This document shows, in pieces, positions 29,874 through 63,638 of a stretch of 64,000 bases of DNA; position 1 is the stretch's first letter; every line of letters begins with the position of its first letter. Location: positions 1 to 64,000 of IMG/VR virus record IMGVR_UViG_2923682817_000001, one strand, 5' to 3'. Below the pieces are notes generated by a model. The model saw only the letters and a list, made by a program, of their open reading frames with translations, did not search any database and was not told where the DNA came from. Source of the DNA: a virus. Its lineage: Duplodnaviria; Caudoviricetes. The position numbers and the translations under genes were made by a program.

Positions 29874-29934
29874 GGCGAGGACGCTACGAATGCGTAGTTG
29901 GGATGCGTCAAGTTGGGATGTTTGCCCGGAAATG

Positions 29935-30115: not shown

Positions 30116-30118
30116 TAC

Positions 30119-30469: not shown

Positions 30470-30502
30470 GGGGTTCCCTTCGGTGGTGCGTGGTGGTGGT
30501 TC

Positions 30503-31653: not shown

Positions 31654-31894
31654 TCTGTCCGCTGACCGGACGTTAAGAGAGGGGAGTCCCCCGGATACCA
31701 CCCCGGGAGACTCCCCTTCTTCCTGACCAGCCTCGACAGGGCTTGAAGAAGGGTTCCTCCCCCTGATCGGTTGGTAGCTGGTGACTCACACCCAGGGAGT
31801 GCGCCCGCAACATCGACAAGCGGCGCTCGGTGAGCTGGAAGGACTCTACAGCCAGTTATGCGAGGCTTACCAGATCACGACTGTCCGTTCTGGA

Positions 31895-32020
31895 CATATT
31901 TCATCTGTTTTTAACTTTTTGCCGTTGACCTGGTCAAACTTTTTACTTCGAGCCTCCGCGCACCCTGATTTTGATCTTGTTTTTTGATCGTCTTTTGTCG
32001 TTGACCTTGTATTTGATCTT
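31895..32020. repeat. AT-rich repeat tract, candidate replication origin
   Basis: TTTGATC at 31970, 31983, 32012; CGTTGACCT at 31923, 31999; AACTTTTT at 31913, 31937. Confidence 0.55.
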
Positions 32021-32600
32021 CCCCACTCTCCGGGGCCGAGAGCCGGGAAGCGCAGGGCGGGGATCTCCCCTCCCCTCGCGCAGACCTGGGCCAAAAAAGG
32101 CGGTCTACACGAGGTGAGGGGAGACACGGAACTCTCCGTACGCCGCTTCGCGGTCGCTTGGTTGGTCACTCGTGCCGGACCGGGCATTACCACCGGTCCC
32201 AGGGCGAGATGTTGTGCAGATCTAGTACCCGGCCCCATCTCGATGGGTCGTCATCCGTAGTACGACTGGACTGCCAGCCCCAGAGTGAGCCTGTCTTAGC
32301 GTGCGCTCCCGGCCTCGCGGCGTTCACCCCAGCCCCGGGCCGAGCTCTACCGAAACGGCGGTCGCACCCGAGTACTGAAGCTAGGGAGCCAACCTCTGGC
32401 TGCCTACACATTCAGTAAGACCGTTTACCCCCTCTCGGGGGCTCTCTCTACACCCGGTGGCCAAGCCGGTGGGAGGTTACTCATTCCGCCTTTTCCTCCG
32501 CTGGCGGGACTGCCATCCACCGAGCCTCGTACGAGGGGCAGGGACTGCGCAGGGGCATGTTTCAGAGGGTGCCCACTCCCCAAAGTTGTTCGACGCGGCC
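32021..32600 (-). ncRNA. Candidate long structured RNA
   Basis: No convincing ORF; many hairpins; long stem 32064-32124 with G-U pairs on the minus strand; promoter-like TGTACA-17-TAACTT upstream. Confidence 0.4.
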
Positions 32601-32772
32601 GAAGTTACCAGGTATGGCCAGGTATGTACAGCTGTTGCCAGCTGCAAGATCGGGGCAGCCTCGCGAGCGACCGCGGCGCCCGAGCGCATCGGGCCGGCCC
32701 CCGCACGCGGCCGTCCGACAGACATGACAAGGCCCCCACCACTCGGCGGGGGCCTTGCCTACGTCTCGGGAT

Positions 32773-33157: not shown

Positions 33158-33715
33158 GTGACGCATCACACCGGATCCCACTACACGCCCGGCTACGGCT
33201 ACCCGCCTGCACCGGTTCCGTCCCGCCCGGGATTCAGCGGCTTGACCGTCGTCCTCGTCGCCTCTGGAACGCTCCTGTCCGGCTGCTTCGGCGGATTCAT
33301 CATCGGCAGCGTGAGCGGATCCACCGCGGCGGCTCCCTCCGAGCGCACGACCCTCCCGCGGGCCAGCAAGGCCGCCGTGCCGACCCACAAGTCCACCCAG
33401 CCCCAGGCGGCCGAAGCCGAGGGCGAGCCGCGCAAGCCTCGCCCTGGCGACTTCCAGCTCTCGGTTAAGACCCTGAAGCAGTCCTGTTTCAGCTCGGCCG
33501 GCTGCCTCATCACCTTTCGAGTGGTGCCGTCCTACCGCGGGCCGGCCCTGGGTGACCAGCAGTACACCGTCACCTACAAGGTCACCGGCGGTAAGGAACC
33601 GAAGATCGGATCGTTCACGATGGTCGGCGCCCAGCTCTCCTACGACCGCCAGGATTTCCTCTCCACCAACTCCTCCGCGGACCGGCTCGCTGCCGAGGTG
33701 ACCGAGGTTCTCTGA
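33158..33715 (+). CDS. Membrane-anchored/exported protein
   Basis: Hydrophobic helix, S/T/P linker, QSCFSSAGC domain; preceded by a leader-A-like sequence. Confidence 0.75.
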   Translation: MTHHTGSHYTPGYGYPPAPVPSRPGFSGLTVVLVASGTLLSGCFGGFIIGSVSGSTAAAPSERTTLPRASKAAVPTHKSTQPQAAEAEGEPRKPRPGDFQLSVKTLKQSCFSSAGCLITFRVVPSYRGPALGDQQYTVTYKVTGGKEPKIGSFTMVGAQLSYDRQDFLSTNSSADRLAAEVTEVL

Positions 33716-33772: not shown

Positions 33773-34333
33773 TCAGATGCGGAAGATCCTCGCGGTGCCG
33801 CGCTGGGCAGAGTAGACCCAGTAGTTGCGGTGGCCGGTTGCCTCTTCGTGGTCGGTCTGCCAGGTGTAGGCGACCTGCTCTTCCTCCGACGCCTCCGACC
33901 GCTCGGGGCAGTGACGACACTCGCTGTAGCAGAACGTCACTACGGCCCGATTGTCGGCCATCTTGTCGACCGGCCGCGCGTGGATCACTTCGCCAGCCGC
34001 GTGCACAAGCTCGCCAGCAGGCTCGGCCCCGGGCTCGGGGGCCGGCGGGGACAAGGTGGCGCCGATGGTGGCGGCGCAGTCGGTGAGGATGGTTTCGGCG
34101 AGCTCCTCCAGGGCAGCCACGTCAGCATGTCGCCACTTGGTGCCGGTCAACCCGGGGAGATCGGCCCGCATGAGGTTTCCCGGGGCGCTTCCGGCCGGGG
34201 CGATGAAGAAGACCGGCGCCTTGCCGACCAGTCCTTCCCGCCGGCCCCGCGGGGTGTTCTTCCACACGATGCGACACCCGGGCTTGGGCAGGCCGTCGAC
34301 CTGGACGGGGCGGCCCTTGTCGTCGGTGATCAC
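33773..34333 (-). CDS. Hypothetical protein with a C-terminal CxxC/H motif
   Basis: CRHC...HEEATGH; coupled to the upstream gene. Confidence 0.65.
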   Translation of the reverse strand: MITDDKGRPVQVDGLPKPGCRIVWKNTPRGRREGLVGKAPVFFIAPAGSAPGNLMRADLPGLTGTKWRHADVAALEELAETILTDCAATIGATLSPPAPEPGAEPAGELVHAAGEVIHARPVDKMADNRAVVTFCYSECRHCPERSEASEEEQVAYTWQTDHEEATGHRNYWVYSAQRGTARIFRI

Positions 34334-34626
34334 TTCTGGCTCCCGAACAGCTCGCGGCCGTCGTGGACGGTGTAGACGATGCCGCTCAGCGTGAACTGGG
34401 CGTTGATGATCTGGGCCATGGCGTCCCAGGCCCGGCTGTCCATCACCGCGGATCCGCGCCGCTCGGGGAGGTCGACGTACTCGACAAGGACGGCCTTGTC
34501 GGCGTCCAGGAGGGTGCCGATGTAGGGGCAGTGGATCTCCCTCTCGACGGCGTAGAGCAGCCTCAGACGGGCCAAGGCGGCGTCTGCGTCGGTATCGCCG
34601 ACAATGGCTTCAGTGATCTCGTTCAT
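34330..34626 (-). CDS. Hypothetical protein (operator-linked, leader B)
   Basis: ATG after CACCGAAGGGAAATCGGG; operator at 34691. Confidence 0.7.
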   Translation of the reverse strand: MNEITEAIVGDTDADAALARLRLLYAVEREIHCPYIGTLLDADKAVLVEYVDLPERRGSAVMDSRAWDAMAQIINAQFTLSGIVYTVHDGRELFGSQK

Positions 34627-35050
34627 CCCGATTTCCCTTCGGTGTTGCGTGGTGCGCCGTTCCTGCTGGCGTGCACCAATACTCTCACGTTAAGGAATCC
34701 AGCGCAACTCATTCCTCAAAGACGCCGTGACCTGGGAAAATGCGGATAATTTATCGATTTCCTAGACAGTGTCAGAGCTACCGCGCCACGCGAGGCGCGG
34801 CAAAAGGCCCCGTCGAAAGACGGGGCCTTTCTTCGTACGCCGTGGCCCCGGGGAGTCCCGTACCCGGAACGGCTCATCCCAGAGCCACGAACCCTGGTTA
34901 CCCTCGGCGGTGGCCGGTCAGGGGAAGCGACCGGAAAAGGCGCACGTTATGGGGATGACACACGCCGCGCACCGCCGAGGGTCCGCCGACCAATCAACCT
35001 GCCTATCCCTCGGGCTCACGGTCACCAACCGGCCGGCGGAGTCTTGTGGG

Positions 35051-41505: not shown

Positions 41506-42075
41506 CTACAGGTGGGGATACCGCATGTTGACGACCAGGGCGCCGCGCGGCATACCGTGGGCGGCTGCAACGTCCTCGGCCGCCGCGGAGATGCTGTATC
41601 GCTGCGGGAGGTGGGGCATCCCGGGGCGGCTACGCGCGGCCCAGGTCCCGCCGGTAACGGTGTTGTTGCTCCACAGCGTGCCGCCGGTCTGGTGGATCAC
41701 GGCGTGAAAGCCGTTCGGACCGTGCACCGCGGCGCGGCGTCCCTGGTATCGCTTGGTCATGGTGACAGTGAGCGTGATCATGGTGGCCGGTTCTTGGACC
41801 GGTGCCCACTGGACATGGTGGTGGTACATCTCGCTTGTCACCTGCGCGCCGTTCTCATACCGGGCGCCCAGGACGTAGCGGCCGGTGTTCTCGCCCCCAT
41901 ACATCCGGTCACGCTCGGCCTGGCGGACGCGGGTCTCAGCAACGCCCATGGCGGCCAGTGCTTCGAGCAACTCGGCGCGGTCGGCCACGTGGGTCACGTT
42001 CCAGACGGGCGCGGGCGCGAGCTTGCTCGTGGTGCTGTAGTAGATGTGGACATCGGCGGTGCGGAGCTCGATCAT
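41506..42075 (-). CDS. Early-array hypothetical protein
   Basis: Hairpin and leader B upstream. Confidence 0.7.
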   Translation of the reverse strand: MIELRTADVHIYYSTTSKLAPAPVWNVTHVADRAELLEALAAMGVAETRVRQAERDRMYGGENTGRYVLGARYENGAQVTSEMYHHHVQWAPVQEPATMITLTVTMTKRYQGRRAAVHGPNGFHAVIHQTGGTLWSNNTVTGGTWAARSRPGMPHLPQRYSISAAAEDVAAAHGMPRGALVVNMRYPHL

Positions 42076-42153
42076 GGCTGATTTCCCTTCGGTGCTGTGT
42101 GGTGGTGGGGAGCGGCGCCCGGCGCCGTGGTGGTGACGCCGGGCGGCCGGTGG

Positions 42154-42660
42154 CTAGATCAGGCTGGCGGGCTGAGCGCTCATGCTCACCAACAGGCCGT
42201 GAGTCGACCCGTTGTAGATCTTGCGGATTTCGCTCTGCGCGCTGATCTCACATCGGCCGCACGCCAGCACGTAAAACATGACCTCGGCCCGCATGTCGTA
42301 AGCCGCGTACCAGTCGGTGAGGGTGACCATTCGGACCGTGATTCGCGGGGCGAAACACAACCACGCTTCCAGGCTGGCGGCGTCGACGTCACGACGGCTC
42401 ATGTTGTAGACACGGGCGGCGAGGATCTTTGCAGCCTCAGTGATCACAGAGGGCGCGCAGGTCTCGCCGTTTTCGTCGGTGGCCAGCACCGGCACGACGA
42501 ACCCGGGGAGACGGCCCGCGGCGGTGGGCGCGTGGGCAGCCTCGCCGGGGTAGACGCCGGTCACGGCAACGGCGGCGTAAGACGGGCGGGTCTCGCGGTA
42601 GTAGCTGTGCATGGTGCGGACTGCCAGGGAGAGAACGTCGGGGGCGGTCGTGATGTCCAT
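42154..42660 (-). CDS. Early-array hypothetical protein
   Basis: Hairpin and leader B upstream. Confidence 0.7.
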   Translation of the reverse strand: MDITTAPDVLSLAVRTMHSYYRETRPSYAAVAVTGVYPGEAAHAPTAAGRLPGFVVPVLATDENGETCAPSVITEAAKILAARVYNMSRRDVDAASLEAWLCFAPRITVRMVTLTDWYAAYDMRAEVMFYVLACGRCEISAQSEIRKIYNGSTHGLLVSMSAQPASLI

Positions 42661-42738
42661 GGGGCGGTTTCCCTTCGGTGCTGTGTGATGGGGGGTGGCG
42701 CCCCGGGCGCGGTGGTGGTCACGCCCGGGGCGAGAAGG

Positions 42739-43932: not shown

Positions 43933-44072
43933 TTTCGTGCTCCCTTGCGGTTGTTCTTGGTGGACTACTTGGAGCCTAGCACGCATGAGGAATGTACAGC
44001 AACATATTCCTCAAATTGGCCTCTGGGCAGCAGAAAACCCCCGCACCATGCGCGGTACGGGGGTTTGCTGGC
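43933..44072 (-). promoter_or_regulatory. Repeat module: terminator, operator, promoter, leader A
   Basis: Operator 43986-44013; TTGCTG-18-TAGGCT; CCACCAAGAACAACCGCAAGGGAG. Confidence 0.85.
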
Positions 44073-45516: not shown

Positions 45517-45657
45517 TTTCGTGCTCCCTTGCGGTTGTTCTTGGTGGACTACGTGGAGCCTAACACGTCTAAGGAATCTACGTAAACACATTCCTCAGAT
45601 AGGGCTGTGAGCAGCAGCGAACCCCCACCCCATGCGCGTTGCAGGGGTTCGCTGGCA
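45517..45657 (-). promoter_or_regulatory. Repeat module: terminator, operator, promoter, leader A
   Basis: Operator 45570-45597; TTTACG-18-TAGGCT. Confidence 0.85.
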
Positions 45658-47214: not shown

Positions 47215-47352
47215 TTGGGGCTCCTTGCGGTCGTTCTTGGTGGATTACGTGGAGCCTAGCACAGATGAGGAATATACGTAAACATATTCCTCAACATGAG
47301 CCTGAACAGCAGAAACCCCCAACACCACATGAGGCGTTGGGGGTTTCTGTGT
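47215..47352 (-). promoter_or_regulatory. Repeat module: terminator, operator, promoter, leader A
   Basis: Operator 47266-47293; TTTACG-18-TAGGCT. Confidence 0.85.
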
Positions 47353-47367: not shown

Positions 47368-47796
47368 TCAGTCCTCACCGGGCTGCATGAGGGTGAGAAC
47401 GGGTTCCCCCTTGTCCCCGGGGCCGAGGTGGACCACCAGGGAGACGCGGCGGGCCATCCTCCCGCGGCCACCGCGCGGCACCCGGTAGAGCTCCACCGGG
47501 GCCTTGCCACCACGACGACGGACGGCGTTGATGGCAAGGCGGGTCATCCAGACCACGTCCCACAGGCGCCCGGCCTGGTCCTGTACGGTCCCCTTGCGGT
47601 TGTTGTCGGCGTCGGTCCACTCCACGCAGTCGGCCCACACGGCCGCCGTCATGGCCAGCGGGATCACAATCCCGGCGTTCTCCAACAGGTCGGCCGGGAC
47701 TTCTCGGAGCAACTCATCTGCGATCAGGTCCGCCCGGGTGATTACGTCGATGTCATCGCCGAAAAGCTCGTTCATCTCGTCTTTGGTCATGCTCAT
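47368..47796 (-). CDS. DUF6573-like protein
   Basis: TRADLIAD...P.AMT.AVW.DCV.W...QD..GRLWDV.WM...GPGD.GEPV.T.M.P.ED. Confidence 0.75.
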   Translation of the reverse strand: MSMTKDEMNELFGDDIDVITRADLIADELLREVPADLLENAGIVIPLAMTAAVWADCVEWTDADNNRKGTVQDQAGRLWDVVWMTRLAINAVRRRGGKAPVELYRVPRGGRGRMARRVSLVVHLGPGDKGEPVLTLMQPGED

Positions 47797-47876
47797 GATC
47801 CGATTTCCCTTCGGTGGTGTGTGGTGGTGGTGGTCCGATCCGCCCCCGGACATCGCGCCCGGGGGCGGATCCGATG

Positions 47877-49151
47877 TCATGCGGCCAGCGCGGCGGCGTC
47901 CTGGTCGGTGGGGCTCTTGGCGTCGAATCCGAGGGCCGACAGGATCTCGTTAGAGACCTGAAGGACGCGGGCGGCGCTGTCCTTCACGGCCTTGACGTCC
48001 TTCCCCCAGCCGGCCACGTAGGGGACCGCGTACTGAGCCGATTCGATGCCCGCGACAGTGGCGACCACGAACGACACCGACTCGGCCTCAACCTCCTGGG
48101 CCTCCCGGCTCATGCCTCGCGTGTTGTGCTCGCACATGATGTGCGCCAGCTCATGCGTGAGGGACGTCACGGCCTGCGCGTCGACCTGGTGGCCCTTGAC
48201 CACAACGCGCCGTTCGGCGAAGTTCACGAAAGCCTCAGCGCTCCCGGCGTCGCCACGCTCCAAGGTGTACCCGCGGGCCTCAACCTGCGCGGCCAGCGCA
48301 TCCCACAGCCACGCCGGAGCATCGCCGGTCAGATCCTGGGGAATCGGCGCGGCGGCCGTCGGCACTGGCTCCCCCTCGGTCTGGGAGATGTCGAACACCG
48401 GGACCAGGAAGAACCGCGTGGAGTCGAACCCGGAGATAAGGGTGATCTCGGTTTCCTGACCGGTCGCGGCGTCGGTCTCCGTAACGGTCATGGTGTCGGC
48501 CTTCTTGGTGCGGGGCGCCCAGACCTTGAGAGACTTGCTTCCCTTGATCACCGTTCGTCCAAGCTTGTTCCACTCCGAAAGCGGGCGGACGTCGGTTGCT
48601 TCGGGCATCTGGGTCCGCAGAAAAAGCGTGTTGTTCAGGCTGTACTTACGCAGGGACGCCCGGAATCGGAGCATCTCGGCCCAACCCTCCGCGGTGGTCA
48701 GGGTCTCTACCGCGGCCGTCAGTGCCTCGTGGGCTTCCTGCATGCGCTTGGCGCGCTCCTCCGGGGTGAGACTGAACCGACCGGACTTCTTCTTGCCGGT
48801 CTTCTTCTTGCCGTTCTTCGCGGTGGTGGACTTCTTGGCCGGTGCGGCGGCGGCCTTGACGGGCTCGGGCTTGGGCTCAGGCTTGACCGGCTCGGGCTGC
48901 TGGCCGTCGATCTCAGCGAGGGCCGCCCGCCCAAGGTCGGTGATCACATAGGCCCAGTTGCTGCGGTCGGTCGGGGTGTTCTTCTCGACCAGACCGCGCC
49001 GCTTGAGAGCCTGCACCGAGTTGGCGTTAACGCCAGCCCTGCGCATGTCGTCCAGGAAGGCGGCCACGCTGCCGCCGGCGACTGCGAGATTCCGGAGGCT
49101 GGTGATCATCAGGGCGGAGAGGCCGCGGACGTTGTCGAGAGTGTTCGCCAT
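47877..49151 (-). CDS. ardC: ArdC-like antirestriction protein (ssDNA-binding plus HExxH domain)
   Basis: W..ML.F...L..YS.NN....Q...AT.V....W..LGR.V.KG.K; VFDISQT.G; THELAH; EVEAES. Confidence 0.85.
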   Translation of the reverse strand: MANTLDNVRGLSALMITSLRNLAVAGGSVAAFLDDMRRAGVNANSVQALKRRGLVEKNTPTDRSNWAYVITDLGRAALAEIDGQQPEPVKPEPKPEPVKAAAAPAKKSTTAKNGKKKTGKKKSGRFSLTPEERAKRMQEAHEALTAAVETLTTAEGWAEMLRFRASLRKYSLNNTLFLRTQMPEATDVRPLSEWNKLGRTVIKGSKSLKVWAPRTKKADTMTVTETDAATGQETEITLISGFDSTRFFLVPVFDISQTEGEPVPTAAAPIPQDLTGDAPAWLWDALAAQVEARGYTLERGDAGSAEAFVNFAERRVVVKGHQVDAQAVTSLTHELAHIMCEHNTRGMSREAQEVEAESVSFVVATVAGIESAQYAVPYVAGWGKDVKAVKDSAARVLQVSNEILSALGFDAKSPTDQDAAALAA

Positions 49152-49290
49152 TTTCGTGCTCCCTTGTGGTTGTTCTTGGTGGATGTGAAGACCGTAGCAC
49201 GTCCAAGGAATCTAGTGCAACACATTCCTTAAAAATGCCTCTGAGCAGCAGAGAGCCCCAACGCCATGCATGGTGTTGGGGCTCTCTGGT
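49152..49290 (-). promoter_or_regulatory. Repeat module: terminator, operator, promoter, leader A
   Basis: Operator 49204-49231; TTGCAC-18-TACGGT. Confidence 0.85.
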
Positions 49291-50016: not shown

Positions 50017-50054
50017 GTGGTGCTCCCTGCGGTGCGTTGTTCTTGGTGGTGTGC

Positions 50055-50184
50055 ACAGCTAACCACAGTTGAGGAATACACCGCAAGTCATTCCTTAAAA
50101 CTCTCTAGATCTCTCACATAAGGCCAGGTCACAGCCTTTTTTGAGGAATGAGTTGCAATACATTCCCCAGCTGTGGTTAGCTGA
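50055..50184. promoter_or_regulatory. Back-to-back operator/promoter pair at the centre of the early array
   Basis: Operators 50070-50097 and 50142-50169 lie in inverted arms, each ending CTGTGGTTAGCTG. Confidence 0.85.
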
Positions 50185-50236
50185 TGCCACGCCGGAAACG
50201 GCAGCGCCACGCAGCACCACCGAAGGGAATCGAATC

Positions 50237-50491
50237 ATGATCCACTACCACGTCATCAGGCCCGGCGAGTCCGGGGGCGGCAAGCTCGGCGGCCGTACCT
50301 TCGAGAAGCTGGACCACGCCCGCGCCGAATTTCTCCTGCTCGCCCCCCACCACGCACAGGGGATCACCGCGGAGTACTGCCGCCAGGTTTTCGCTAACGG
50401 CAACGTGGTTCGGCTGCGCGACGGAGACGAACACGGGGGCGCCCCAATCGCCTATTTCGCCGAGTGCAAGCGAGACGGCGTCTCCTGCTGA
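50237..50491 (+). CDS. Early-array hypothetical protein
   Basis: ATG after leader B. Confidence 0.7.
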   Translation: MIHYHVIRPGESGGGKLGGRTFEKLDHARAEFLLLAPHHAQGITAEYCRQVFANGNVVRLRDGDEHGGAPIAYFAECKRDGVSC

Positions 50492-50593
50492 TCTGCCTGA
50501 CGGGTCCTCCGCTCACCGCGCCGGCGATCCGGCGCGGCCGGGCGGGGCGTCCGCCTGGACGATCCACCACGCACCACTGAAGGGAATCCGATC

Positions 50594-50893
50594 GTGAACA
50601 AGCCGCTGACGCTTTCCACGCCCGAACTGCAGGCCGGGGACGTCGTCTTGACATACGGGATGCGCGTACGTCTCTCCCCTGAGCCGCGGATCTACCAGAA
50701 CAGGGGGACGGTCTACGCCTGGAACGGCACCGTCGAGAACCTGGACGAAGTCAAGGCGGACGGATTCGTGCCCATGTCGTTCCTGTCCGAAGGGCATTGG
50801 GTCGACGGCAAGGGGTGGGTGTACGAAGTGACCGGCCGCTGGGTCATTCAGGGAAACGACCTTGCTACCTGGGCTGTGATGCGGTCGGCCTAG
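50594..50893 (+). CDS. Early-array hypothetical protein
   Basis: Hairpin and leader B; W.IQGN.LA.W motif. Confidence 0.75.
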   Translation: MNKPLTLSTPELQAGDVVLTYGMRVRLSPEPRIYQNRGTVYAWNGTVENLDEVKADGFVPMSFLSEGHWVDGKGWVYEVTGRWVIQGNDLATWAVMRSA

Positions 50894-50985
50894 TGGGTCT
50901 GTCCGGGGACAAGCGGGCAGCTGCTCGCCGGTCCTCGCGTGGATCCACCCACGCCACCACCACGCACCACCGAAGGGAATCCGAC

Positions 50986-51579
50986 ATGAGTTGGTACCAG
51001 GATCAGGCGGCCATGCTGCAGCTCGCCCACGACATCGCCGAGCACCTGAAAGACTTCACGGTCGAGCTGTACCCCGTGCCCTTTGACGGCCACAGCAAGA
51101 TCAGTCTTGTAAACGGAGCGTTCCGCCTCGTGCTCCACCAGGACAGCGCGATGCACCGGAAGGGCAAGGTCACGTTCCTGACCGACTTGCCCTATGGCGA
51201 CAGGGTCAACGACCGTACGGTTACCTCCCCCGATCTCACCCTGAGCGCTCACCGGACCGGTAAGTCACTCGCCGGCGACATCACCCGGCGCCTGCTTCCC
51301 GAATACGTCCAGGCCATGCGCCAGGCGCGCGAGCAGATCGACGCGGCGCGCAGCCGGCGAGCCGAAACGAAGAACATGGCCCAGGCAATCGCCGCCATGC
51401 TGCCTGACGGCTACGCCAGGAACAGCGACGACAACGGCACCAACCAGCGCATCACGTGGCGCGGCTCCAAGGGACAGATTGACCTGTGGTCTGGTCGATC
51501 CGCGGTGGTCTCTCTGAACGTCGAGAGTCCCGAATTCCTCACCGAGCTGGTTGAGCTGATCGCCAAGCACTCCGCCTGA
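50986..51579 (+). CDS. Early-array hypothetical protein
   Basis: Hairpin and leader B; DITRRLLP.Y motif. Confidence 0.75.
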   Translation: MSWYQDQAAMLQLAHDIAEHLKDFTVELYPVPFDGHSKISLVNGAFRLVLHQDSAMHRKGKVTFLTDLPYGDRVNDRTVTSPDLTLSAHRTGKSLAGDITRRLLPEYVQAMRQAREQIDAARSRRAETKNMAQAIAAMLPDGYARNSDDNGTNQRITWRGSKGQIDLWSGRSAVVSLNVESPEFLTELVELIAKHSA

Positions 51580-51670
51580 CGGGTCCTCACCTACCGGGCC
51601 GGCGATCCGGTCCGGTAGGTGAGATGTCCGCCTGGACGAGTCCACCATGCACCACCGAAGGGGATCCGAT

Positions 51671-52024
51671 ATGACCATCAGGGACATGTCCAAGAAAGAC
51701 CTGGTCCACGTCGCGAACGGCGCTTTCACTAAGATCTACGAGCAGCGTACGGCCGTCCCCTCCTGGGGATCCGACGGCGCTATGACTAACTCGATGAGGG
51801 CCAACAACGAGGGCGACTCCGCAACCCTCTTCGCCGAATCCCGGACCTCTGGAATCTGGGCGCCGGACATGCGCGCGGAGATCGGCGTGCGGCTGCCGCT
51901 GTCCGAGCTGCGCCAGTACATTGCCGAGCTGACCGCGATTGCCGACGACCTCGAACAGCAGCAGGAGCAGCGCAAGGCCGATAACCGGGCCTTGATGCGC
52001 CTGTGCAACAACGGGAACGGCTGA
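51671..52024 (+). CDS. Early-array hypothetical protein
   Basis: Hairpin and leader B. Confidence 0.7.
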   Translation: MTIRDMSKKDLVHVANGAFTKIYEQRTAVPSWGSDGAMTNSMRANNEGDSATLFAESRTSGIWAPDMRAEIGVRLPLSELRQYIAELTAIADDLEQQQEQRKADNRALMRLCNNGNG

Positions 52025-52459: not shown

Positions 52460-52590
52460 GCCCCGTATCCCAATTAGGATGCGGGGCTTTTCGCTGTTCA
52501 AAGGTGCTTTTAAGGAATATATTGTGTTTCATTCCTCACGCTGCCATACTGAGCACACACCACAGCAGTACCGAAGGGAACCCCCGCCCC
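52460..52590 (+). promoter_or_regulatory. Repeat module: terminator, operator, promoter, leader B
   Basis: Operator 52511-52538; TTGTGT-17-CATACT. Confidence 0.8.
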
Positions 52591-52821
52591 ATGAGCAAGC
52601 ACGACATGACCGAGCTCACCAAGGCCCTTACAGACCAAGGGTTCGAGGTGGTCACCAAAGGCGTCCGACACCCCAAGGTCTACAAGGTGACGACCAACCC
52701 CGACGGCGGTGAACGGCGCCGGCTGATCACTACGCTCCCGTCGTCGTCTTCATCAGGTCGGAACCTGGACAACACACTTCCCTACCTGCGCAGGGCTGGG
52801 TTCGTGTGGAAGAACCGCTAA
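52591..52821 (+). CDS. HicA-like toxin
   Basis: L.K.L..QGFEV..K...H.KV...T.PSS.S..R...N....LRRAG; 76 aa, basic. Confidence 0.65.
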   Translation: MSKHDMTELTKALTDQGFEVVTKGVRHPKVYKVTTNPDGGERRRLITTLPSSSSSGRNLDNTLPYLRRAGFVWKNR

Positions 52822-53239: not shown

Positions 53240-53372
53240 GGCCCCCGTTCCCCCTATGGGATCGGGGGCTTTTTGCTGCTCACAGTCTTTTTTGAGGAAT
53301 GTATTGCGCTGCATTCCTTGTCGGTGCTACGGTATTCACATCCACCAAGAACAACCGACAAGGAGCCACCAC
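53240..53372 (+). promoter_or_regulatory. Repeat module: terminator, operator, promoter, leader A
   Basis: Operator 53293-53320; TTGCGC-18-TACGGT; TCCACCAAGAACAACCGACAAGGAG. Confidence 0.85.
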
Positions 53373-53824: not shown

Positions 53825-54106
53825 ATGCGTACCTGTCTCACCCCTGATCAGTTGGCAAGCCTCGCCGCGCAGGGATTCGCCGAGTCACAGCGCAGCCGCT
53901 TCGTTGACCCTGACGCAGTCGCCAAGTCCAAGCGGATTCTTTGCGAACGCGGAGAGGAATGGGCCGCAAGCGTTCTCATGCGCGACCTTTCCCGCCGGTC
54001 TCTCCTGCTTCCCCATCTTCCGTACCTGGAGAACGGCGAGTTGGAAACGCTCATCCTTGCCGACCGCGCCGAATGGGATCAGCTCGCGGCGCTGGCTCAG
54101 GCATAA
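53825..54106 (+). CDS. Early-array hypothetical protein
   Basis: GAAGGGAG ribosome site; 93 aa. Confidence 0.65.
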   Translation: MRTCLTPDQLASLAAQGFAESQRSRFVDPDAVAKSKRILCERGEEWAASVLMRDLSRRSLLLPHLPYLENGELETLILADRAEWDQLAALAQA

Positions 54107-54135
54107 CCACCCTGAAAATACGAGAGGAACCGATC

Positions 54136-54492
54136 ATGGAACAGACCACCGTAGACCAGCAGATTTCCGAGGCCGAGCAGCGTGCGGCGCTGGCCCAGAC
54201 CCGCGCGGACTGGGAGAAGTTCGACGGCATCCGCCAGCGGGTGAACGCCATGGACATCATGGTCGACGCCTTGCGCGGCAAGACGGCCGACGGCCCGTGG
54301 CTGATCACGGCCGGAGCCATCCGCGTGAAGGACCTGGAGAAGCTCGTCACCCTGGCCGAAATCGCGCTCCGGGTCCACCGCGAGATCCAGTCGTGCGCGG
54401 ACCAGCAGATCCCCCTTGAGGGCCGCGAATCTGAGCTGGCATTCGACCTCTGGAACCGCGTCAACACCTTGAACGCCCAGCAGTCCGAGTAA
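54136..54492 (+). CDS. Early-array paralog (C-terminal module only)
   Basis: F.GIR.R.NAM...DLE.L..LAE.A shared with 54579-55277. Confidence 0.75.
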   Translation: MEQTTVDQQISEAEQRAALAQTRADWEKFDGIRQRVNAMDIMVDALRGKTADGPWLITAGAIRVKDLEKLVTLAEIALRVHREIQSCADQQIPLEGRESELAFDLWNRVNTLNAQQSE

Positions 54493-54578
54493 CCCTCACC
54501 GTAGGCGGGCCGATTTGGTCCGGTCCGCCTGCGGGCAAGGCCACTCGGCCGAGTCTGTTCGCACTGAAGGGAACCCCC

Positions 54579-55277
54579 GTGAAGAAGTCCGGCATCAAGC
54601 CTGGCGAGTTCTACGCCCTGAACAATCGCTACAGCACCGACCTGGTACGCGTGATCAATCTCGACCAGCTGGTGGTCAACGTTGACCGGAGCTGGGACCG
54701 CACCGTTCGAGCGTGCTTCGAGACCTCCCGCGACAAGCGGCCGACCCGCTGGAACTACGCGCAGGCCTCGGGATTCGCCGCGGTGAAGCTGGCGAGCGAC
54801 ACCCCCGAGCTGCGCGAGGCCGCGGCCAAGCTGACCCTTGACGACTTTCTGGCCGCCACGAATTCCGAGCCGGCTGACGGTCTGGAATTCGTGATCGTGA
54901 CGACCCTGGCCAAGATCCTCGGCCCGTACACGGAGGTTATGGCCGCCAAGGAGGCCGAGGAGGAGCGGGCGAGGCTTGCCCGCGAGCAGTCCGAGAAGAA
55001 GGCCGCGGAAGTGGCTGAACGGTTCAACGGCATTCGCGGGCGGCTCAACGCGATGGGCGTCACCGTCTTCCCCGAGCGCGTTGGCGGGACCATGTCAGGA
55101 AGGGCCTACATGGACGACTTGGAGCGGCTCGCCGCGCTGGCCGAACTCGCGGTTGATCTGCACACCAAGATTGACCAGGGCGCCGGATCCTTCGAGATGG
55201 CGTCGATCGAAGCGCATAGGTACGGCGCGGGATACGCGTTTGGGGTCTGGGAGAAGGTCCAGGCTCTGAACGCCTAG
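54579..55277 (+). CDS. Early-array paralog
   Basis: Hairpin and leader B; similar to both neighbours. Confidence 0.75.
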   Translation: MKKSGIKPGEFYALNNRYSTDLVRVINLDQLVVNVDRSWDRTVRACFETSRDKRPTRWNYAQASGFAAVKLASDTPELREAAAKLTLDDFLAATNSEPADGLEFVIVTTLAKILGPYTEVMAAKEAEEERARLAREQSEKKAAEVAERFNGIRGRLNAMGVTVFPERVGGTMSGRAYMDDLERLAALAELAVDLHTKIDQGAGSFEMASIEAHRYGAGYAFGVWEKVQALNA

Positions 55278-55381
55278 TTGTCCCAGTGGTCCTGTTCGCC
55301 GGCGGGCCGATTTGGTCCGACCCGCCGGCGGGCAAGGCCGCTCGGCCAGCTCCGCTACGCACCACCGAAGGGAATCCGATC

Positions 55382-56074
55382 ATGAAGCGCTCCGAGATCG
55401 TACTTGGCTCCGTCTACGCACACCAGCGCACTGGTGGACACGCTGAACCGATCATGTTCGTGTCGACGAGCTCCATCTACGAGCAGTGCTCGCGCGCTAA
55501 CTCCCCCGTCGGCGGTGTTTTCCGCCAGACGAGCGATGTTCGGCCGCGGTCCCGCTACGGCGTCGCCCTGTCCGGCTACCCCGTGGTGCGGCTGATCGTC
55601 GACACGCCGGAGAACCGCAAGCGCGCCGCCGAGGTCTCCATGGAGGACTTCGAGCACGCCACCACGGCTGACCTCGGGGACGGTCTGTGGCTCGATGTCG
55701 TGGCCCGTACGCAGCTAATCACGGGCCTGTATGACGTGCTGAAGGCCGAGACCGCCGCACGCGACGAGCGCAGCCGGGCCGCCCTCTCAGAGCACGAGGC
55801 GAAGGCCGCCGCCAGCCGCCAGCACTACAACGACACGCGCAACAGCCTGTCCGTCTACGGGGTCAAGCTGCGCGAGCTGAGCCCCTACGACGACGACATC
55901 ATCACTCACGCGAAGGTCAAGCTGGAGGACCTGGACAAGCTGCGCGGCATCCTGGACACCGTGCGCAACCTGGAGATGCTCGTCAAGGAGTGGGACACGG
56001 GCGGCCAGACGGAAACCGCGGCTGAGATCGTTCTGATTCTCCGCAACCTGCAGCGCGGTCTCGTCTCCGAGTAG
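55382..56074 (+). CDS. Early-array paralog
   Basis: MKRSEI..G.VYA versus MKKSGI..GEFYA; hairpin and leader B. Confidence 0.75.
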   Translation: MKRSEIVLGSVYAHQRTGGHAEPIMFVSTSSIYEQCSRANSPVGGVFRQTSDVRPRSRYGVALSGYPVVRLIVDTPENRKRAAEVSMEDFEHATTADLGDGLWLDVVARTQLITGLYDVLKAETAARDERSRAALSEHEAKAAASRQHYNDTRNSLSVYGVKLRELSPYDDDIITHAKVKLEDLDKLRGILDTVRNLEMLVKEWDTGGQTETAAEIVLILRNLQRGLVSE

Positions 56075-56163
56075 CCATGGTGGGGAGCGGCGCGGAGTAA
56101 TCTGATCCGTTCCCGGCCACGGCCGCTCGGCCGATTCCGTTCGCACCGCGCGAGGAGTTTGCG

Positions 56164-56832
56164 ATGTTGATCACTGAACTGATCCCCGAGGGTATGTCGG
56201 GACCTGGCCGGCAGACGGTCGAGCTCGACGGCGTGACGTATGAGCTCGTCGCCTGGGGACATCTCCGTTCCGGCGACCCGGTTAGCTGGGACGTGGTCCG
56301 CTTGGCTGGAGAGGATCGCGTCAGGTTTGCGCACATCATCCAGCACCAGCCGACAGAGCGTGTGTTCGACGTTCGGCCGGTTTCGTGGTTCATGCCCACG
56401 GTGACGACCAGCGTGACTGGTGACCTGGCCGAGATCGTGGCCGAGGTTCGCAAGCACAACGAGGCCGACGACAGGCTGTTTGCCGAGGAGGTAGGCGATC
56501 TGCGCGGGTTCGCTGCGCTGGTCTGGGCGGTCAGGCACTCGCCGATCAAGTCGGAGTTCAGCAAGCGGTACGACACCTACCGGATCCCTGTGTACGACGC
56601 GTTGCCACTGGTCTGGGTGACTCTGCGGTTCGAGACCGAGTCGCGGACCGTGCCTTACTACGATGCCGAGACGAACGAGATGACGACCAGGCTGCTGGAG
56701 TTCGGCCCCAACGGCAAGTACACGGTGCAGGTGCGCAACCCGGAATACCAGGATGAAGACGTCCGGCTGTTCGACGACCCGCGCGAAGCGGTCCGCAGCG
56801 CTGCGGAAGCGGCGAACTCTGCCTACACCTGA
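56164..56832 (+). CDS. Early-array hypothetical protein
   Basis: GAGGAG ribosome site; 222 aa. Confidence 0.7.
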   Translation: MLITELIPEGMSGPGRQTVELDGVTYELVAWGHLRSGDPVSWDVVRLAGEDRVRFAHIIQHQPTERVFDVRPVSWFMPTVTTSVTGDLAEIVAEVRKHNEADDRLFAEEVGDLRGFAALVWAVRHSPIKSEFSKRYDTYRIPVYDALPLVWVTLRFETESRTVPYYDAETNEMTTRLLEFGPNGKYTVQVRNPEYQDEDVRLFDDPREAVRSAAEAANSAYT

Positions 56833-56842
56833 TCCGGTCATG

Positions 56843-56878
56843 ACGAAGGCCCCCCGGCTTGCGCTGGGGGGCCTTCGC
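56843..56878. terminator. Hairpin between the early array and the convergent late operon
   Basis: CGAAGGCCCCC...GGGGGCCTTCG. Confidence 0.75.
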
Positions 56879-56957
56879 GTTTATCCACCACGGGCGGCAC
56901 CGAAGGGAATTCCGTACCACCGCGGCATCAACGGTAGCAGGCTGCCGGACGGTCCGG

Positions 56958-58451
56958 TCAGTCTCCGATCACCTCGGCCTCAACAATGCCGGCGTCAGCG
57001 AAGACGTGGTCCGACTGCACCGGGGCCGCCAGTGCCCGAGCCGATTCCGACGCGTCTTTGCCGAACAGTCTGGCGATCATTCCGGACTGGGCCTGAGCTC
57101 GGGACGAGGCCTTGACCGAGATGGACAGCGTTTCCGATTCCGACTCGCGGTGCTTGGCGATGCTGCGGTCCCATCCGTCCAGCTCCTTAGTCAGGTTCGG
57201 GTCGGCGTATCCGCCTTCCATCTGCTCGACCATGTGCATGAACGCGATTCGCTGGAATCTGATGGCTCGGATTGCGTCGTCGGCGGCGTCGATCTGCTCG
57301 CGCGTCCGCAACGTGATGGGCACCTCATAGGCGCAGCCGGCGTCAGGGCGAAATGCCTTGCAGTGGGAGGCGATATAGCAACTATTGCACTGGCGTAGGG
57401 ACGTGCCGGCGATGCTCGGCAGGTTGTCGGTGCGGCTGATCTGCTCGCCGTTTTCTCCCAGCTCAGAGCGTGAAACCTGGCGGAGCGAGAGGCCCGGGAG
57501 GAGCTCGCGTTCGCTCTCGTCGCGGGCGACCGCAGTTGTGGTTTTGGTCCGAGCTTCTGGGGTGTCCATCCCAACTACGGCAGGGGTGGTTTCCCCATTT
57601 ACGTCCGTGACCGGTTCAGGCGACATAGTAAGTGTTTTCTTTCGCGAGTTGAGATGTCCGACCAGCTGGCGCCACGACCAGACGGCGACCTTCAGGACCT
57701 CGGTGGAGTCGTCGCCCTCGAACAGGTCCGTGTCGAATCCCTCACGGTCCAGGTGCGCGCGGTGACGCTTGCGGCCCTGCGCCTTGTAGGCCTTGGGGTA
57801 GCGCTTCAACGTGTGGCCGGTCCAGATCTGGGAGTCGCCGTACTGGGCCGGCGACAGCCAGCTGGTGGATGCGACCGAGTCCCAGGCGATCGACTCCATG
57901 AGGTCCGGCTTGGTCATTGCGATGCCGTGCAGACGAACCCCGCGGCGGGCGATCCGGTTGAGGACGCCGGCGATGTCTCGGCCGGAGATCGACGTCTGCG
58001 GCACCCCGACGCGGCCGTAAGAGTCCGCCAGGCGCTCCAGCTCGGGCAGGCCGGCGGCTGCGTCCCAGATCGGGAGGAATTTCTCCCCCAGGTCGCCGTA
58101 GAAGTCCGATCGCTGGCGCTCGATCCAGTCCGGTCCCATGGCGCGGGCGTCCAACTCGGAGACCATCTCGACCCTGTCCAGGTTCGCCAGGACGAAAGCC
58201 TGATAGCGGTCCGACAGGGTCTCGATGTCCTCGCGGCTGTAGGAATCCGGTTTGCTGTTGACGGTGTAGGCGCCGGAGTCCAGGAAGACGCGTTGTCCGT
58301 CTGGGTATTTGTCGCTGATGAGCCATGGCCGGGCGAATTTCGTCCGGCGGGACAGACCGACGAAGGACAAGCCAACGTCGGTCACGTCCTGCTCGGCGAG
58401 GAGCTTGCGCCAGCCTGGGATCTCCGACCCACCGAAGTAGAGGGTCAGCAC
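56958..58451 (-). CDS. TGT/DpdA-like barrel protein with a C-terminal Cys cluster
   Basis: VFLDSGAY, LHGIAMT, DSVASTSW; CNSC.....C........C. Confidence 0.6.
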   Translation of the reverse strand: MLTLYFGGSEIPGWRKLLAEQDVTDVGLSFVGLSRRTKFARPWLISDKYPDGQRVFLDSGAYTVNSKPDSYSREDIETLSDRYQAFVLANLDRVEMVSELDARAMGPDWIERQRSDFYGDLGEKFLPIWDAAAGLPELERLADSYGRVGVPQTSISGRDIAGVLNRIARRGVRLHGIAMTKPDLMESIAWDSVASTSWLSPAQYGDSQIWTGHTLKRYPKAYKAQGRKRHRAHLDREGFDTDLFEGDDSTEVLKVAVWSWRQLVGHLNSRKKTLTMSPEPVTDVNGETTPAVVGMDTPEARTKTTTAVARDESERELLPGLSLRQVSRSELGENGEQISRTDNLPSIAGTSLRQCNSCYIASHCKAFRPDAGCAYEVPITLRTREQIDAADDAIRAIRFQRIAFMHMVEQMEGGYADPNLTKELDGWDRSIAKHRESESETLSISVKASSRAQAQSGMIARLFGKDASESARALAAPVQSDHVFADAGIVEAEVIGD

Positions 58452-60091
58452 TAGAAAAGCCGCTTCATGCTGTCCGGGTCGTTGCCCGGCTTGATCTTGT
58501 TGATGTAGGCCCGGTGCTTCTTCAGCTCCGTGTCAGTAAGGGTGTCGACATTCTTGCCGTCGTCGCCCCACTTGCGGCCACGCCCGCGGAGGTTCCGCCA
58601 CACCTCGGAGTCCTTGTCCCTGGGGGGCAGTACGGGACCATGCAAGGTCTGTCCGAGGACGCGCATCTCGTCGTCAGCAGTGGCGGGCCTGGAGAGGTTC
58701 CACTTGACCGTTTCCCGGCCGTGTACGTCCGTGCCGTTGTACTCGGCGCTGATGAGATCCGGGTGATTGGCGAACTTCTCCGAGACCTTGCGCACGGCCG
58801 CCGCGGTGTCCTTGGACACAGGGATCTTCCGGACGGACTTCCACTGGTCGATGGAGGAACGGTCGGAAAGGTCGGCGAGCTGCGTCGGCTGCTGCGCCGG
58901 GGCAGCTGCAGTCGCGGCGGCGGCGGCCGGCTTCTTGGTGCGCCGCTTGCGTGCGGGCTTAGCAGCCGGCGCGGCGGCCGGCGCCGGGGCCGAGGCGGTC
59001 AGTGAAGGCTTCGCCGCGGGCGCCTCGATGGCGGCCAGGGTGCTCGGAGCCGCGGGCGAAGAGGTGGGGGCCGGCGAGCTGGTCGGCGCGGCGTACGGAT
59101 TACGCAGCACGGACCCGCGGACGACGGTGGGCGGCGCAGCGGCGGCAGGCGTCGCGACGGGCCGGGGTTTCGGTGTCGCCGAGCCGCGCAGGGTCGGGGT
59201 GAACTGCGGTCCGGTCAGCGGTCCGTGCATACCAACGGCTTCGCGCGATGCGGGGTGTGCCGCCAGCGGGTTTCGGCGCGTCGCCGATTCCGGGGCGCCG
59301 TAGGGGTTCGGGCCGGCCTTGCGCGCGGCGGGTGCCGCGGTGGTGGGCGTCGGCGCGTACGGGTTGCGGCCGGCCTTGGACGCGGGGGTGGTGGACCTCT
59401 GGGTGAAGTCGGCCGGGCGGCTGATCTGCGCCATGGCCTGCTGACGGGCGGCTGCCAGGCGGTCGTAGGAGCCGCTGAGGTGCGCGCCGGCCGCGGTGCC
59501 CTGCAGCGACTGCGGAGTCCCGTGAATGCTCTGTCGGGCGTTGCTGATCGTCTGCTGGAGGCGAGCCTGGCCCTGGTCGGCGATCTCCTGCCAGCTGCGG
59601 TTAGGCGTCGGGGCCGATGCGCTGGGGCGCGCGGATACGAACGAGTTGCCGTCGTTGCCAACGCGGTGGGAGGAAGAGGCCACCAGCTTGTCAGGGCGCG
59701 CGGCCGGCCTACTGGGAGCTGCGGGAGAGGCTGCGGGGCCGCGGGCTACGAGCTGGTCAGGGCGGACGTTACGGGGGGCGCTGGTGAACTGGGCTCCAAG
59801 GTGCGGCGCCGGGGCGGGCTGCGGCCTGTCGTACTTCGACAGGTCCGCCGTCGACCTGGCCGGCAGGGTGTGGGAGTCGATGTCTCCGGGCGCGGCCGGC
59901 GGGCCGTTCTTCGGCTTGGGCGAGGCCTCGGGGGTTCGGCCGGGCTTGGCGCCGGGCTTGGCGGTGACGCGCTTGCGGTCGATGTAGGCGGCGCGGCGCT
60001 CGGCGTAGGGGTTCTTCAGCTGCCCGATGCCCTGGGAGACCCGTAGGCGCTGCTCGTGGTTGATGTTGTGGAGGGCGTTGAAGTCGATCAT
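58451..60091 (-). CDS. Low-complexity P/A/R-rich protein with repeated NPY motifs
   Basis: Start moved to ATG 60091, coupled to the HAD-like gene (GGAG upstream); ends adjacent to the next start. Confidence 0.65.
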   Translation of the reverse strand: MIDFNALHNINHEQRLRVSQGIGQLKNPYAERRAAYIDRKRVTAKPGAKPGRTPEASPKPKNGPPAAPGDIDSHTLPARSTADLSKYDRPQPAPAPHLGAQFTSAPRNVRPDQLVARGPAASPAAPSRPAARPDKLVASSSHRVGNDGNSFVSARPSASAPTPNRSWQEIADQGQARLQQTISNARQSIHGTPQSLQGTAAGAHLSGSYDRLAAARQQAMAQISRPADFTQRSTTPASKAGRNPYAPTPTTAAPAARKAGPNPYGAPESATRRNPLAAHPASREAVGMHGPLTGPQFTPTLRGSATPKPRPVATPAAAAPPTVVRGSVLRNPYAAPTSSPAPTSSPAAPSTLAAIEAPAAKPSLTASAPAPAAAPAAKPARKRRTKKPAAAAATAAAPAQQPTQLADLSDRSSIDQWKSVRKIPVSKDTAAAVRKVSEKFANHPDLISAEYNGTDVHGRETVKWNLSRPATADDEMRVLGQTLHGPVLPPRDKDSEVWRNLRGRGRKWGDDGKNVDTLTDTELKKHRAYINKIKPGNDPDSMKRLF

Positions 60092-62855: not shown

Positions 62856-63638
62856 TTAGGAAATCGGAGCGTTCCAGAGCGCTGCCCAGGTGAGCCGGCC
62901 CACGGCGCCGTCGACAGACAGGCGGTGCTCGTCCTGGAAGGCCCGGACCACCTGCGCCGTCTTAGGGCCGTAGCGGCCGTCGACCTCGATGGACCAACCG
63001 CGTTCCTTCAGCCGGGCCTGCAGCCGCCGGACACCGTTGTTGGGCTTGGTCTTGCCGCTGTTACGTGCCTGGGAGAACCAGTCGTCGGGGGCCAGCGGGA
63101 ACTTCGGTGCGCTGTCGCCGGCGGCGGGGCGGCCGACGGGCTTGGTGGCCACCGGCGGCGGGATCGGGGCGCCGGCCTTGGCGTACTTGGGGTAGCCGAA
63201 GCCGACGAACAGGCTGCGGTCGCGGTAGCGGATGGCCACCTGGTCGGCGGTGTTGCCCTCGATGGTGACGACCCGACCCCGGGCGTCAGTGCCTAGGACG
63301 ATGACCACGTGGTCGATCGCGGAGATGATCTTGGTGCCCGACCAGTCGATGAAGCCGATGGCACCTAGGGTGGGCTTGGCGCCCCAGCGGCCGTTGCGGG
63401 CGAACCAGGCGGCGTGGTGGGGGGTGTATGCGTACTCGCCGACGATGTCGACGGCTTCCTCGCCGCCGGCCTCGTGCGCGCAGTAGACCACGAACATGTC
63501 GCACCAGGCGGCCTTGTCGAACGCGCTGTTCTTCTGGCGGTCGCCGTACCACTGGCCGAACTTCGTCGCGCCGTTCTTCTCGGCGTAGCCCTCGTAGGAC
63601 TTGGCTACCCTGATCAGCTGCTCAGCAGTGAAGCTCAT
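62856..63638 (-). CDS. Endolysin (CHAP-like amidase plus peptidoglycan-binding domain)
   Basis: AWCDMFV, DHV.IV, IEGNT; VRRLQ.RL...VDG.YGPKT...FQ....L.VDG.VG..TW. Confidence 0.9.
   Translation of the reverse strand: MSFTAEQLIRVAKSYEGYAEKNGATKFGQWYGDRQKNSAFDKAAWCDMFVVYCAHEAGGEEAVDIVGEYAYTPHHAAWFARNGRWGAKPTLGAIGFIDWSGTKIISAIDHVVIVLGTDARGRVVTIEGNTADQVAIRYRDRSLFVGFGYPKYAKAGAPIPPPVATKPVGRPAAGDSAPKFPLAPDDWFSQARNSGKTKPNNGVRRLQARLKERGWSIEVDGRYGPKTAQVVRAFQDEHRLSVDGAVGRLTWAALWNAPIS

Follow-up and report, generated by a model that had tools for sequence, protein, structure and literature searches.

The convergent junction and the phage element

The window, meaning the whole stretch of 64,000 nucleotides analysed here, contains a gap of 125 nt into which two genes converge. 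The gene on the plus strand is the last of an accessory block and had no match in Pfam and PHROG searches. The gene on the minus strand, which ends at the gap with a TGA stop codon, encodes a DpdA-like protein, whose best phage relatives are genes of BRock-type Streptomyces phages with 41% identity over residues 1-495 of 497. Within the gap lie, in the direction of the plus strand, a strong hairpin, a copy of a leader (leader B) that elsewhere in this phage stands directly ahead of genes, a 13-nt segment GTACCACCGCGGC, a small stem and a palindrome that adjoins the DpdA stop (table 1). On the minus strand the order is the DpdA stop (56958), the leader copy and the hairpin. The original prediction had described this arrangement as a copy lying between a TGT-like stop and a terminator; the DpdA-like stop and the strong hairpin are both present, but the U tract of a terminator is missing on the minus strand.

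The window covers the initial 64 kb of contig C4, which is 105,521 bp long and has 65.5% G+C, and the other contigs of the 10.5-Mb genome have 70-72% G+C. One ORF spans the two ends of the contig (window 1-483 and C4:104853-105521), and the contig is therefore circular or circularly permuted. A second or integrated copy was not found in the other four contigs, the chromosome included, and the 105.5-kb element may be either a prophage that is extrachromosomal or DNA of a phage that was co-assembled. It is the contig of a temperate, myovirus-like actinobacterial phage, whose host is a high-G+C actinobacterium: it encodes a tail sheath, a tape-measure/lysin protein, a baseplate hub, a large terminase and a tyrosine integrase, together with a replication set that comprises DnaB, primase, helicase, SSB, DNA polymerase, ribonucleotide reductase, recombinase and exonuclease. 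The virion, replication and lysis genes, with an endolysin gene at 62856-63638, are carried by a co-oriented minus-strand array of about 69 kb, which runs from 20.7 kb down to 1 and then from 105.5 kb to 56,958, and the DpdA-like gene is its final gene. It is plausible that the transcript of this array is late, as the original prediction assumed. Genes were called with our own codon-score script.

Elsewhere in the window, ARAGORN reports a 91-nt tRNA-Cys (33541-33631, plus strand, anticodon printed as ACA) inside the predicted gene 33158-33715; one of these two calls is wrong. For about 1.1 kb (31654-32772), bordered by a plus-strand gene on one side and a minus-strand gene on the other, the script made no confident gene call.

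Table 1. Coordinates of the features discussed, counted from the first base of the window
Feature	Position	Strand	Basis or remark
Terminal gene of the accessory block, 222 aa	56164-56832	+	ORF and coding score
Convergent-junction hairpin, G+C stem of 11-13 bp, GAAGGCCCCCC / GGGGGGCCTTC	56845-56877	.	folds
Orphan leader-B copy TCCACCACGGGCGGCACCGAAGGGAAT	56884-56910	+	unique at no more than 3 mismatches
Predicted RNA hairpin	56887-56926	-	GCCGCGGUGGUAC paired with the anti-leader spacer, four G-U pairs
Alternative stem-loop UGCUACCG / CGGUGGUA	56915-56939	-	minimum-energy fold of a 125-nt RNA
Palindrome CCGGACCGTCCGG	56945-56957	.	directly after the DpdA stop codon
DpdA-like queuine/archaeosine tRNA-ribosyltransferase homologue	56958-58451	-	phrog_887, E 3e-58
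Canonical intrinsic terminator GGCCCCGAGG / CCUCCGGGGCC, then UUUUUCAUU (U tract)	29931-29965	-	folds
Orphan leader-A copy CCACCAAGAACAAT...CCGCAAGG	30036-30066	+	minus-strand genes on both sides
Leader-B copy	30473-30500	-	ahead of gene 30119-30469
Leader-B copy	34632-34659	-	ahead of gene 34330-34626
Leader-B copy	42082-42109	-	ahead of gene 41506-42075
Leader-B copy	42668-42695	-	ahead of gene 42154-42660
Leader-B copy	47804-47831	-	ahead of gene 47368-47796 (DUF6573)
Leader-B copy	50203-50230	+	ahead of gene 50237-50491
Leader-B copy	50560-50587	+	ahead of gene 50594-50893
Leader-B copy	50953-50980	+	ahead of gene 50986-51579
Leader-B copy	51638-51665	+	ahead of gene 51671-52024
Leader-B copy	52554-52581	+	ahead of gene 52591-52821
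Leader-B copy, weakest	54547-54574	+	ahead of gene 54579-55277
Leader-B copy	55348-55375	+	ahead of gene 55382-56074
Putative promoter/operator module	43963-44040, 45547-45625, 47243-47320, 49182-49260, 50049-50125	-	
Putative promoter/operator module	53267-53342	+	
Putative promoter/operator module, also near	34693-34716, 50144-50166, 52513-52536		

Two families of leaders at gene starts

Leader B has a 13-nt core, CACCGAAGGGAAT, which is matched 14 times in the window with at most two mismatches, against 1.33 matches expected; none of 100 shuffled sequences reached 14, and the density of the core is 132.7 per Mb on the phage contig compared with 0-1.4 per Mb on the other contigs. Twelve of these matches are located 3-9 nt ahead of the ATG or GTG that opens a predicted gene. 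The gene-linked copies, seven on the plus strand (50.2-55.4 kb) and five on the minus strand (30.4-47.8 kb), are all found at 30.4-55.4 kb, and there is none inside the virion, replication and lysis array. The remaining two matches are a coding-internal one with two mismatches (9436-9448) and the copy in the convergent junction. The consensus of the leader is (T)CCACCACGCACCACCGAAGGGAATCCGATC-ATG, and the exact 13-mer occurs in only three of the twelve gene-linked copies. With the host 16S rRNA's 3' end (...CCUCCUUUCU), leader B can pair through GAAGGGA only, that is, 7 bp including one G-U pair, in a conserved block of about 28 nt.

Leader A, with the consensus TCCACCAAGAACAACCGCAAGGGAGCACGAAA-ATG, is found ahead of nine genes. 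One of them (47877-49151, minus strand) encodes an ArdC-N anti-restriction domain (PF08401, E 8e-7), which fits an early, anti-defence role of the leader-A gene set.

Six leader-A genes and about three leader-B genes are preceded by a module of about 75 nt that is conserved and in which the inverted repeat GAGGAAT(N10-12)ATTCCTC is followed by TGN-TAGGCT or TACGGT; its sequence suggests an extended -10 promoter together with an operator, and it resembles ESAS. Between the leftward and rightward accessory blocks lies a divergent control region of 222 nt (50018-50239) whose predicted fold is one long palindrome (-102.7 kcal/mol), with TGTGGTTAGCTG boxes, mirrored, and GAGGAAT/ATTCC repeats on either side; it looks like a central switch region.

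In the plus-strand block (50.2-56.1 kb) a strong hairpin precedes each of the seven leader-B copies in the same intergenic gap. These hairpins fall into families by their common loops (GGGCCGATTTGGTCCG; CCGGCGATCCGG), with sites at 54493-54560 and 55278-55345 and also at 50492-50560 and 51580-51640, and a small second hairpin (GTCCGCCTGGAC or GGCCGCTCGGCC) follows the block hairpin just ahead of the leader. The intergenic hairpins may be processing or attenuation sites.

Leader copies without a gene

The copy in the convergent junction is a real member of the leader-B family. Both its 5' box TCCACCACG (56884-56892, 9 of 9 positions) and its core (56898-56910, 13 of 13) are exact, whereas its spacer is 2 nt longer and G-rich (GGCGG) compared with the C/A-rich spacers of the gene-linked copies. 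A gapless weight matrix placed it below the listing threshold, probably because of the longer spacer. No ATG, GTG or TTG is present within 40 nt downstream, no plus-strand ORF of at least 20 aa starts behind it even if CTG, ATT, ATC and ATA are allowed, and the frame at the usual spacing between leader and start meets a stop after six codons. The absence of a start codon, which had been claimed from the sequence, is confirmed for a leader that has twelve gene-linked relatives and no ORF of its own; such a copy is called an orphan here. In the 47 nt past it, the resemblance to a tandem, degenerate second leader is weak and non-significant, since 63 of 1000 shuffled sequences score as high (p ~0.06).

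The hairpin of the junction has a strong stem. It is followed on the plus side by GCGTTTAT; as regards the U tract of a terminator, the plus side offers GCGUUUAU and the minus side has no U run. The hairpin is not among the results of a consensus terminator scan, and other junction hairpins of the same phage likewise have no U tracts. One strong symmetric hairpin is found at each of six of the eight listed junctions between plus and minus genes on the contig, and three of the hairpin-bearing gaps measure 57-63 nt and hold little else. Compared with these, the 125-nt gap is long, which makes the extra 80 nt, consisting of the orphan and its pairing partner, unusual. At the gathering threshold no Rfam family matches the junction, the best sub-threshold candidates being terminator-like hairpins, and a tRNA scan found no tRNA there.

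Read on the minus strand, the orphan becomes an anti-leader, AUUCCCUUCGGUGCCGCCCGUGGUGGA. Inspection by eye revealed no minus-strand promoter just upstream of it. Any anti-leader-B RNA would thus consist of the DpdA mRNA's 3' UTR or of a fragment of that UTR. Since no terminator-like structure was found between the DpdA stop and the orphan, DpdA transcripts should include it.

The leader-A family also has an orphan, and the claim that the two mirror each other holds: the leader-A copy reported near 30037 is real, it lies on the plus strand ahead of a minus-strand terminator, and each family has exactly one gene-less copy, both on the plus strand and both flanked by a minus-strand stop and hairpin. 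On the minus strand, orphan leader A is within the 3' UTR of gene 30119-30469, which is itself a leader-B gene. A 53-codon ORF with a TTG start (30079-30240, plus strand) begins 14 nt behind orphan leader A, antisense to gene 30119-30469, and is unlikely to be a real gene. Right after the terminator, in 29874-29930, TTGACG, a 17-nt spacer and TAGCGT are placed 7 nt ahead of the ATG of gene 29049-29873, which looks like the promoter of a leaderless mRNA.

Predicted folding of the minus strand

For the 80-nt junction segment the predicted fold is -32.6 kcal/mol on the minus strand and -22.9 kcal/mol on the plus strand. The apical loop of the predicted minus-strand hairpin at 56887-56926 is UUCCC, the complement of the SD-core GGGAA at 56905-56909, and in the ensemble of the 122-nt 3' UTR this loop is unpaired with P > 0.99. 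The 80-nt minus-strand fold has z = -1.1, with 26 of 200 shuffled sequences folding as well, and is not significant. When the 5' flanks were shuffled, the loop was as exposed (at least 0.9) in 80 of 500 cases, 128 of the 500 placed it in a hairpin loop, and 86 of 1000 folds were as stable. Strand-specific structure, as modelled here, is weak evidence for an anti-leader B.

The original prediction also contained an 8-bp stem with two G-U pairs. It is present in one minimum-energy fold, but its 5' arm CUGCUACC is about 0.8-0.9 unpaired in the ensemble, because a competing hairpin takes the 3' arm. The G-U pairs of the stem-loop at 56915-56939 are possible only on the minus strand, and its ensemble probability is low.

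The 3' UTR that contains anti-leader A folds with z = -2.4 on the minus strand (3 of 200 shuffled sequences) versus z = -1.0 on the plus strand. In this predicted fold a long hairpin ends in a tip that leaves GUGGAU, a part of the anti-5'-box, unpaired.

Pairing of the anti-leaders with start regions

As a specificity test, duplex energies over long windows gave no discrimination, because any two G+C-rich RNAs pair. They were replaced by a duplex test with 29-nt anti-leaders, in which 149 genes were ranked. The twelve leader-B start regions pair with anti-B at -34.0 to -40.3 kcal/mol and occupy ranks 1-11 and 13, and the medians are -21.05 kcal/mol for 128 other genes and -22.6 kcal/mol for the nine leader-A genes. 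With anti-A, ranks 1-8 and 15 of the 149 go to the start regions of the leader-A genes. These calculated energies show that the anti-leaders have pairing capacity and family specificity; the orphans being leader copies, family-specific pairing arises by construction and is not independent evidence. The ranking bears out, for all twelve genes, the complementarity between the minus strand and the SD region of about a dozen leader-B genes that had been noticed in the sequence. In addition, UCCCUUC of anti-B pairs with GAAGGGA without a G-U wobble, whereas the 3' end of the host 16S rRNA needs one.

Relatives and variants of the site

By Megablast, 54000-60000 had no match in the phage collection, and comparison of the DNA of 55300-58500 with 40 genomes of the genus (39 besides the genome itself) gave short chance matches only. 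When contigs of genomes, viruses and metagenomes were searched with the DpdA protein, no confirmed relative was found; among 401 genomes of the family, only two others have DpdA relatives, at 38-39% identity. Exact leader-B patterns had no matches in genome contigs or viral contigs. Of the 401 family genomes, five others contain a degenerate leader pattern of 16 nt, once each, and only the phage's own genome contains it several times. No relative of the phage was found in the collections searched. An RNA run that contains this DNA was likewise sought, and none was listed. The contigs of three DNA runs, which probably come from the source organism itself, hold no variant of the slot; they are identical in this region except for single-base homopolymer gaps in one noisy run.

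What could the orphan leader B do?

The reading that we tentatively favour, and that may well be right although we stop short of calling it probable, is that orphan leader B is a putative functional anti-leader in the 3' UTR of the DpdA-like mRNA and acts in trans on twelve start regions. The sequence, the position, the complementarity and the parallels are established; from them we infer transcription through the site, the 3' end of the RNA, its pairing in vivo, and in which direction and at what time it acts. A polymerase that ends the minus-strand array would pass the DpdA stop, transcribe the reverse complement of leader B and then reach the junction hairpin. The resulting anti-leader-B RNA, either still within the mRNA or as a 3' fragment that the hairpin protects, would expose UUCCC in a loop and could pair, in the twelve leader-B messages, with the 13-nt SD core and the 9-nt 5' box. 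Such pairing would block ribosome binding or expose the messages to double-strand RNases. Orphan leader A, carried in the 3' UTR of gene 30119-30469, would act likewise on its own family of genes.

Several aspects argue for the anti-leader. Both boxes of orphan B are perfect though they serve no gene; the extra 80 nt of the gap consists of the orphan and its pairing partner; and the minus strand of these 80 nt folds about 10 kcal/mol better, with UUCCC in a loop. Orphan A has the same layout, a canonical terminator with a U tract and no plus-strand block adjoining it, and the strongest pairing of either orphan's antisense is with start regions of the same family. Finally, cluster K mycobacteriophages offer an analogue, with a reverse SAS in the apical loop of a stem-loop. 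As to the earlier suggestion that each leader family has its own antisense RNA, the geometry, the symmetry of the two families and the family-specific pairing speak for it, and the fold of the junction, which is not significant, is weak evidence.

On the other hand, there is a serious rival, which we regard as less likely. According to it, the copy is a functionless leftover or boundary copy, left either by a hairpin and leader-B unit, the usual spacer of the plus-strand block, that lost its downstream gene through deletion (the emptied cassette slot of the original prediction), or by cassette exchange through recombination between leaders. Orphan B is co-oriented with the plus-strand block and stands behind a hairpin like all seven functional copies there; its GGCGG spacer departs from the C/A-rich consensus, as the spacer of a decaying copy might; and the following 47 nt are weakly, non-significantly leader-like. 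The minus-strand fold is no better than that of shuffled sequences. It also counts against the anti-leader that the junction hairpin has no U tract on the minus side, that inspection by eye showed no dedicated minus-strand promoter, that no phage relative was found, and hence no conservation or covariation for the site, and that the homologous loop is diverged in three of the ten cluster K phages sampled. What a leftover does not explain is that core and 5' box are perfect without the constraint of any gene. No trace of a lost gene is present, and the C-terminus of DpdA is intact, aligned to residue 495 of 497. Moreover, three other gaps at convergent junctions are trimmed, and the hairpin is of the operon-end type (GAAGGCCCC...), not of the intergenic type of the plus-strand block. 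Nor can a leftover account for orphan leader A, which is flanked on both sides by minus-strand genes.

It is quite improbable that the leader is instead a binding site, as RNA or DNA, for a phage or host factor, such as a translational activator or repressor of all leader-B messages, and that the orphan is an extra site, either a decoy on minus-strand RNA or on plus-strand read-through RNA or a DNA roadblock at the junction. A block of about 28 nt is conserved where 16S pairing explains 7 nt of SD sequence, the authors who described SAS left a protein or an RNA partner open where they discuss the motif (PMC3203893), and an extra T creates an 8-bp palindrome, GGAATTCC, in orphan leader B only. 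However, no candidate factor was identified, the fixed distance of 3-9 nt to the start codons argues for a translation-linked role at the RNA level, and sense RNA would seldom include an orphan that stands behind a terminator. That orphan leader B serves a plus-strand product, whether a very short peptide, one with a non-canonical start or a small RNA, is hardly credible: the leader is intact and its SD-like GAAGGGA is present, but the start codons, reading frames and Rfam matches sought behind it are those reported missing above, and it stands behind a plus-strand hairpin.

If the anti-leader reading is carried further, the start leaders of actinophages would be the target half of an RNA switch, with one 3'-UTR anti-leader per regulon that is held by a terminator hairpin, with anti-A and anti-B cross-wired and with the reverse SAS of cluster K as the same device. 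This generalization is speculative and, in our estimate, rather unlikely to hold. In the cross-wiring, anti-A would sit on a leader-B gene and anti-B on the final gene of the 69-kb virion, replication and lysis array, and once that array had been read to its end, the accessory or early proteins would be shut off. If true, it would provide a mechanism for a motif that has been unexplained since 2011, and if the orphan is the RNA partner, one short RNA could compactly switch a dozen dispersed genes. SAS-type leaders mark early or accessory gene sets in many actinophages, some of which serve as tools in mycobacterial genetics and in therapy. If the orphan is only a leftover, it would still point to the leaders as cassette boundaries in phage mosaicism.

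Comparison with known systems

As far as the published accounts of the motifs go, the leaders resemble the SAS and ESAS of cluster K mycobacteriophages (PMC3203893, PMC11373665) and of cluster EF Microbacterium phages (PMC7302621). Common to both are an asymmetric motif at the position of the ribosome binding site, 3-9 nt ahead of 10-19 starts; conservation that goes beyond 16S pairing; confinement to the non-structural part of a temperate actinophage; inverted repeats and a promoter ahead of a subset; and one gene-less copy that is reverse to local transcription. The sequences are unrelated, the leaders here being ACCGAAGGGAA and CCACCAAGAACAAC...AAGGGAG and the SAS consensus of cluster K GGGATAGGAGCCC, and by sequence the leaders are an analogue of SAS, not a member of the cluster K motif family. 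Further differences are that two leader families occur in one genome, each longer (about 28-35 nt) and with its own orphan, that the orphans are located in 3' UTRs just ahead of hairpins, and that host and phage type are not the same, the carrier being a myovirus-like contig of 105 kb within an actinobacterial genome of 10.5 Mb and high G+C. The likeness to SAS is an analogy and not an explanation.

According to the account of Pope et al. 2011 (PMC3203893), each K1 phage has one reverse SAS without a gene start, and the reverse sites of Adephagia, Angelica and CrimD are given in figures S3/S4 of that paper. In Anaya we find 16 forward SAS and one reverse SAS, the latter between gp96 and gp97. 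Read on the transcribed strand, this reverse site makes up the 10-nt apical loop CCUCCUAUCC in a predicted stem-loop, and the gap, which is highly structured, has z = -6.0. Across 133 cluster K records the region is conserved, with identities of 74-100%, and several of these records annotate a hypothetical CDS across it. An alignment of ten cluster K phages shows an invariant TAGACT box and, after it, two hairpins in whose stems G-U pairs and some compensatory pairs are retained. The loop CCTCCTATCC is kept in seven of the ten and diverged in Amgine, Ekdilam and SirPhilip; Amgine still has the canonical SAS, which argues against a strict anti-SAS role. Positions 59759-59969 of Anaya and their homologues may be an unannotated small RNA. 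No paper that links start-associated sequences with antisense RNA was found in the literature searched, and the one co-occurrence was unrelated.

The c4 RNA of P1/P7 and the CI RNA of P4 are experimentally shown phage antisense RNAs that mask the ribosome binding sites of several targets; they are encoded upstream of or within the operon that they control and act in immunity. Like them, the anti-leader would be a short RNA from a longer phage transcript that pairs with repeated targets containing ribosome binding sites; unlike them, it is located in a 3' UTR, has twelve dispersed candidate target genes and is predicted from sequence. In bacterial small RNAs derived from 3' UTRs, the seed lies just upstream of the terminator hairpin of the mRNA and no promoter of their own is needed. 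The putative anti-leader B likewise lies just upstream of a hairpin and would need no promoter of its own, but here the hairpin has no U tract on the minus strand. Actinobacteria are not known to have Hfq. SAS-type leaders and the single reverse copy of cluster K are already in print as observations; this phage adds two leader families and two orphans in one genome, both orphans within 3' UTRs.
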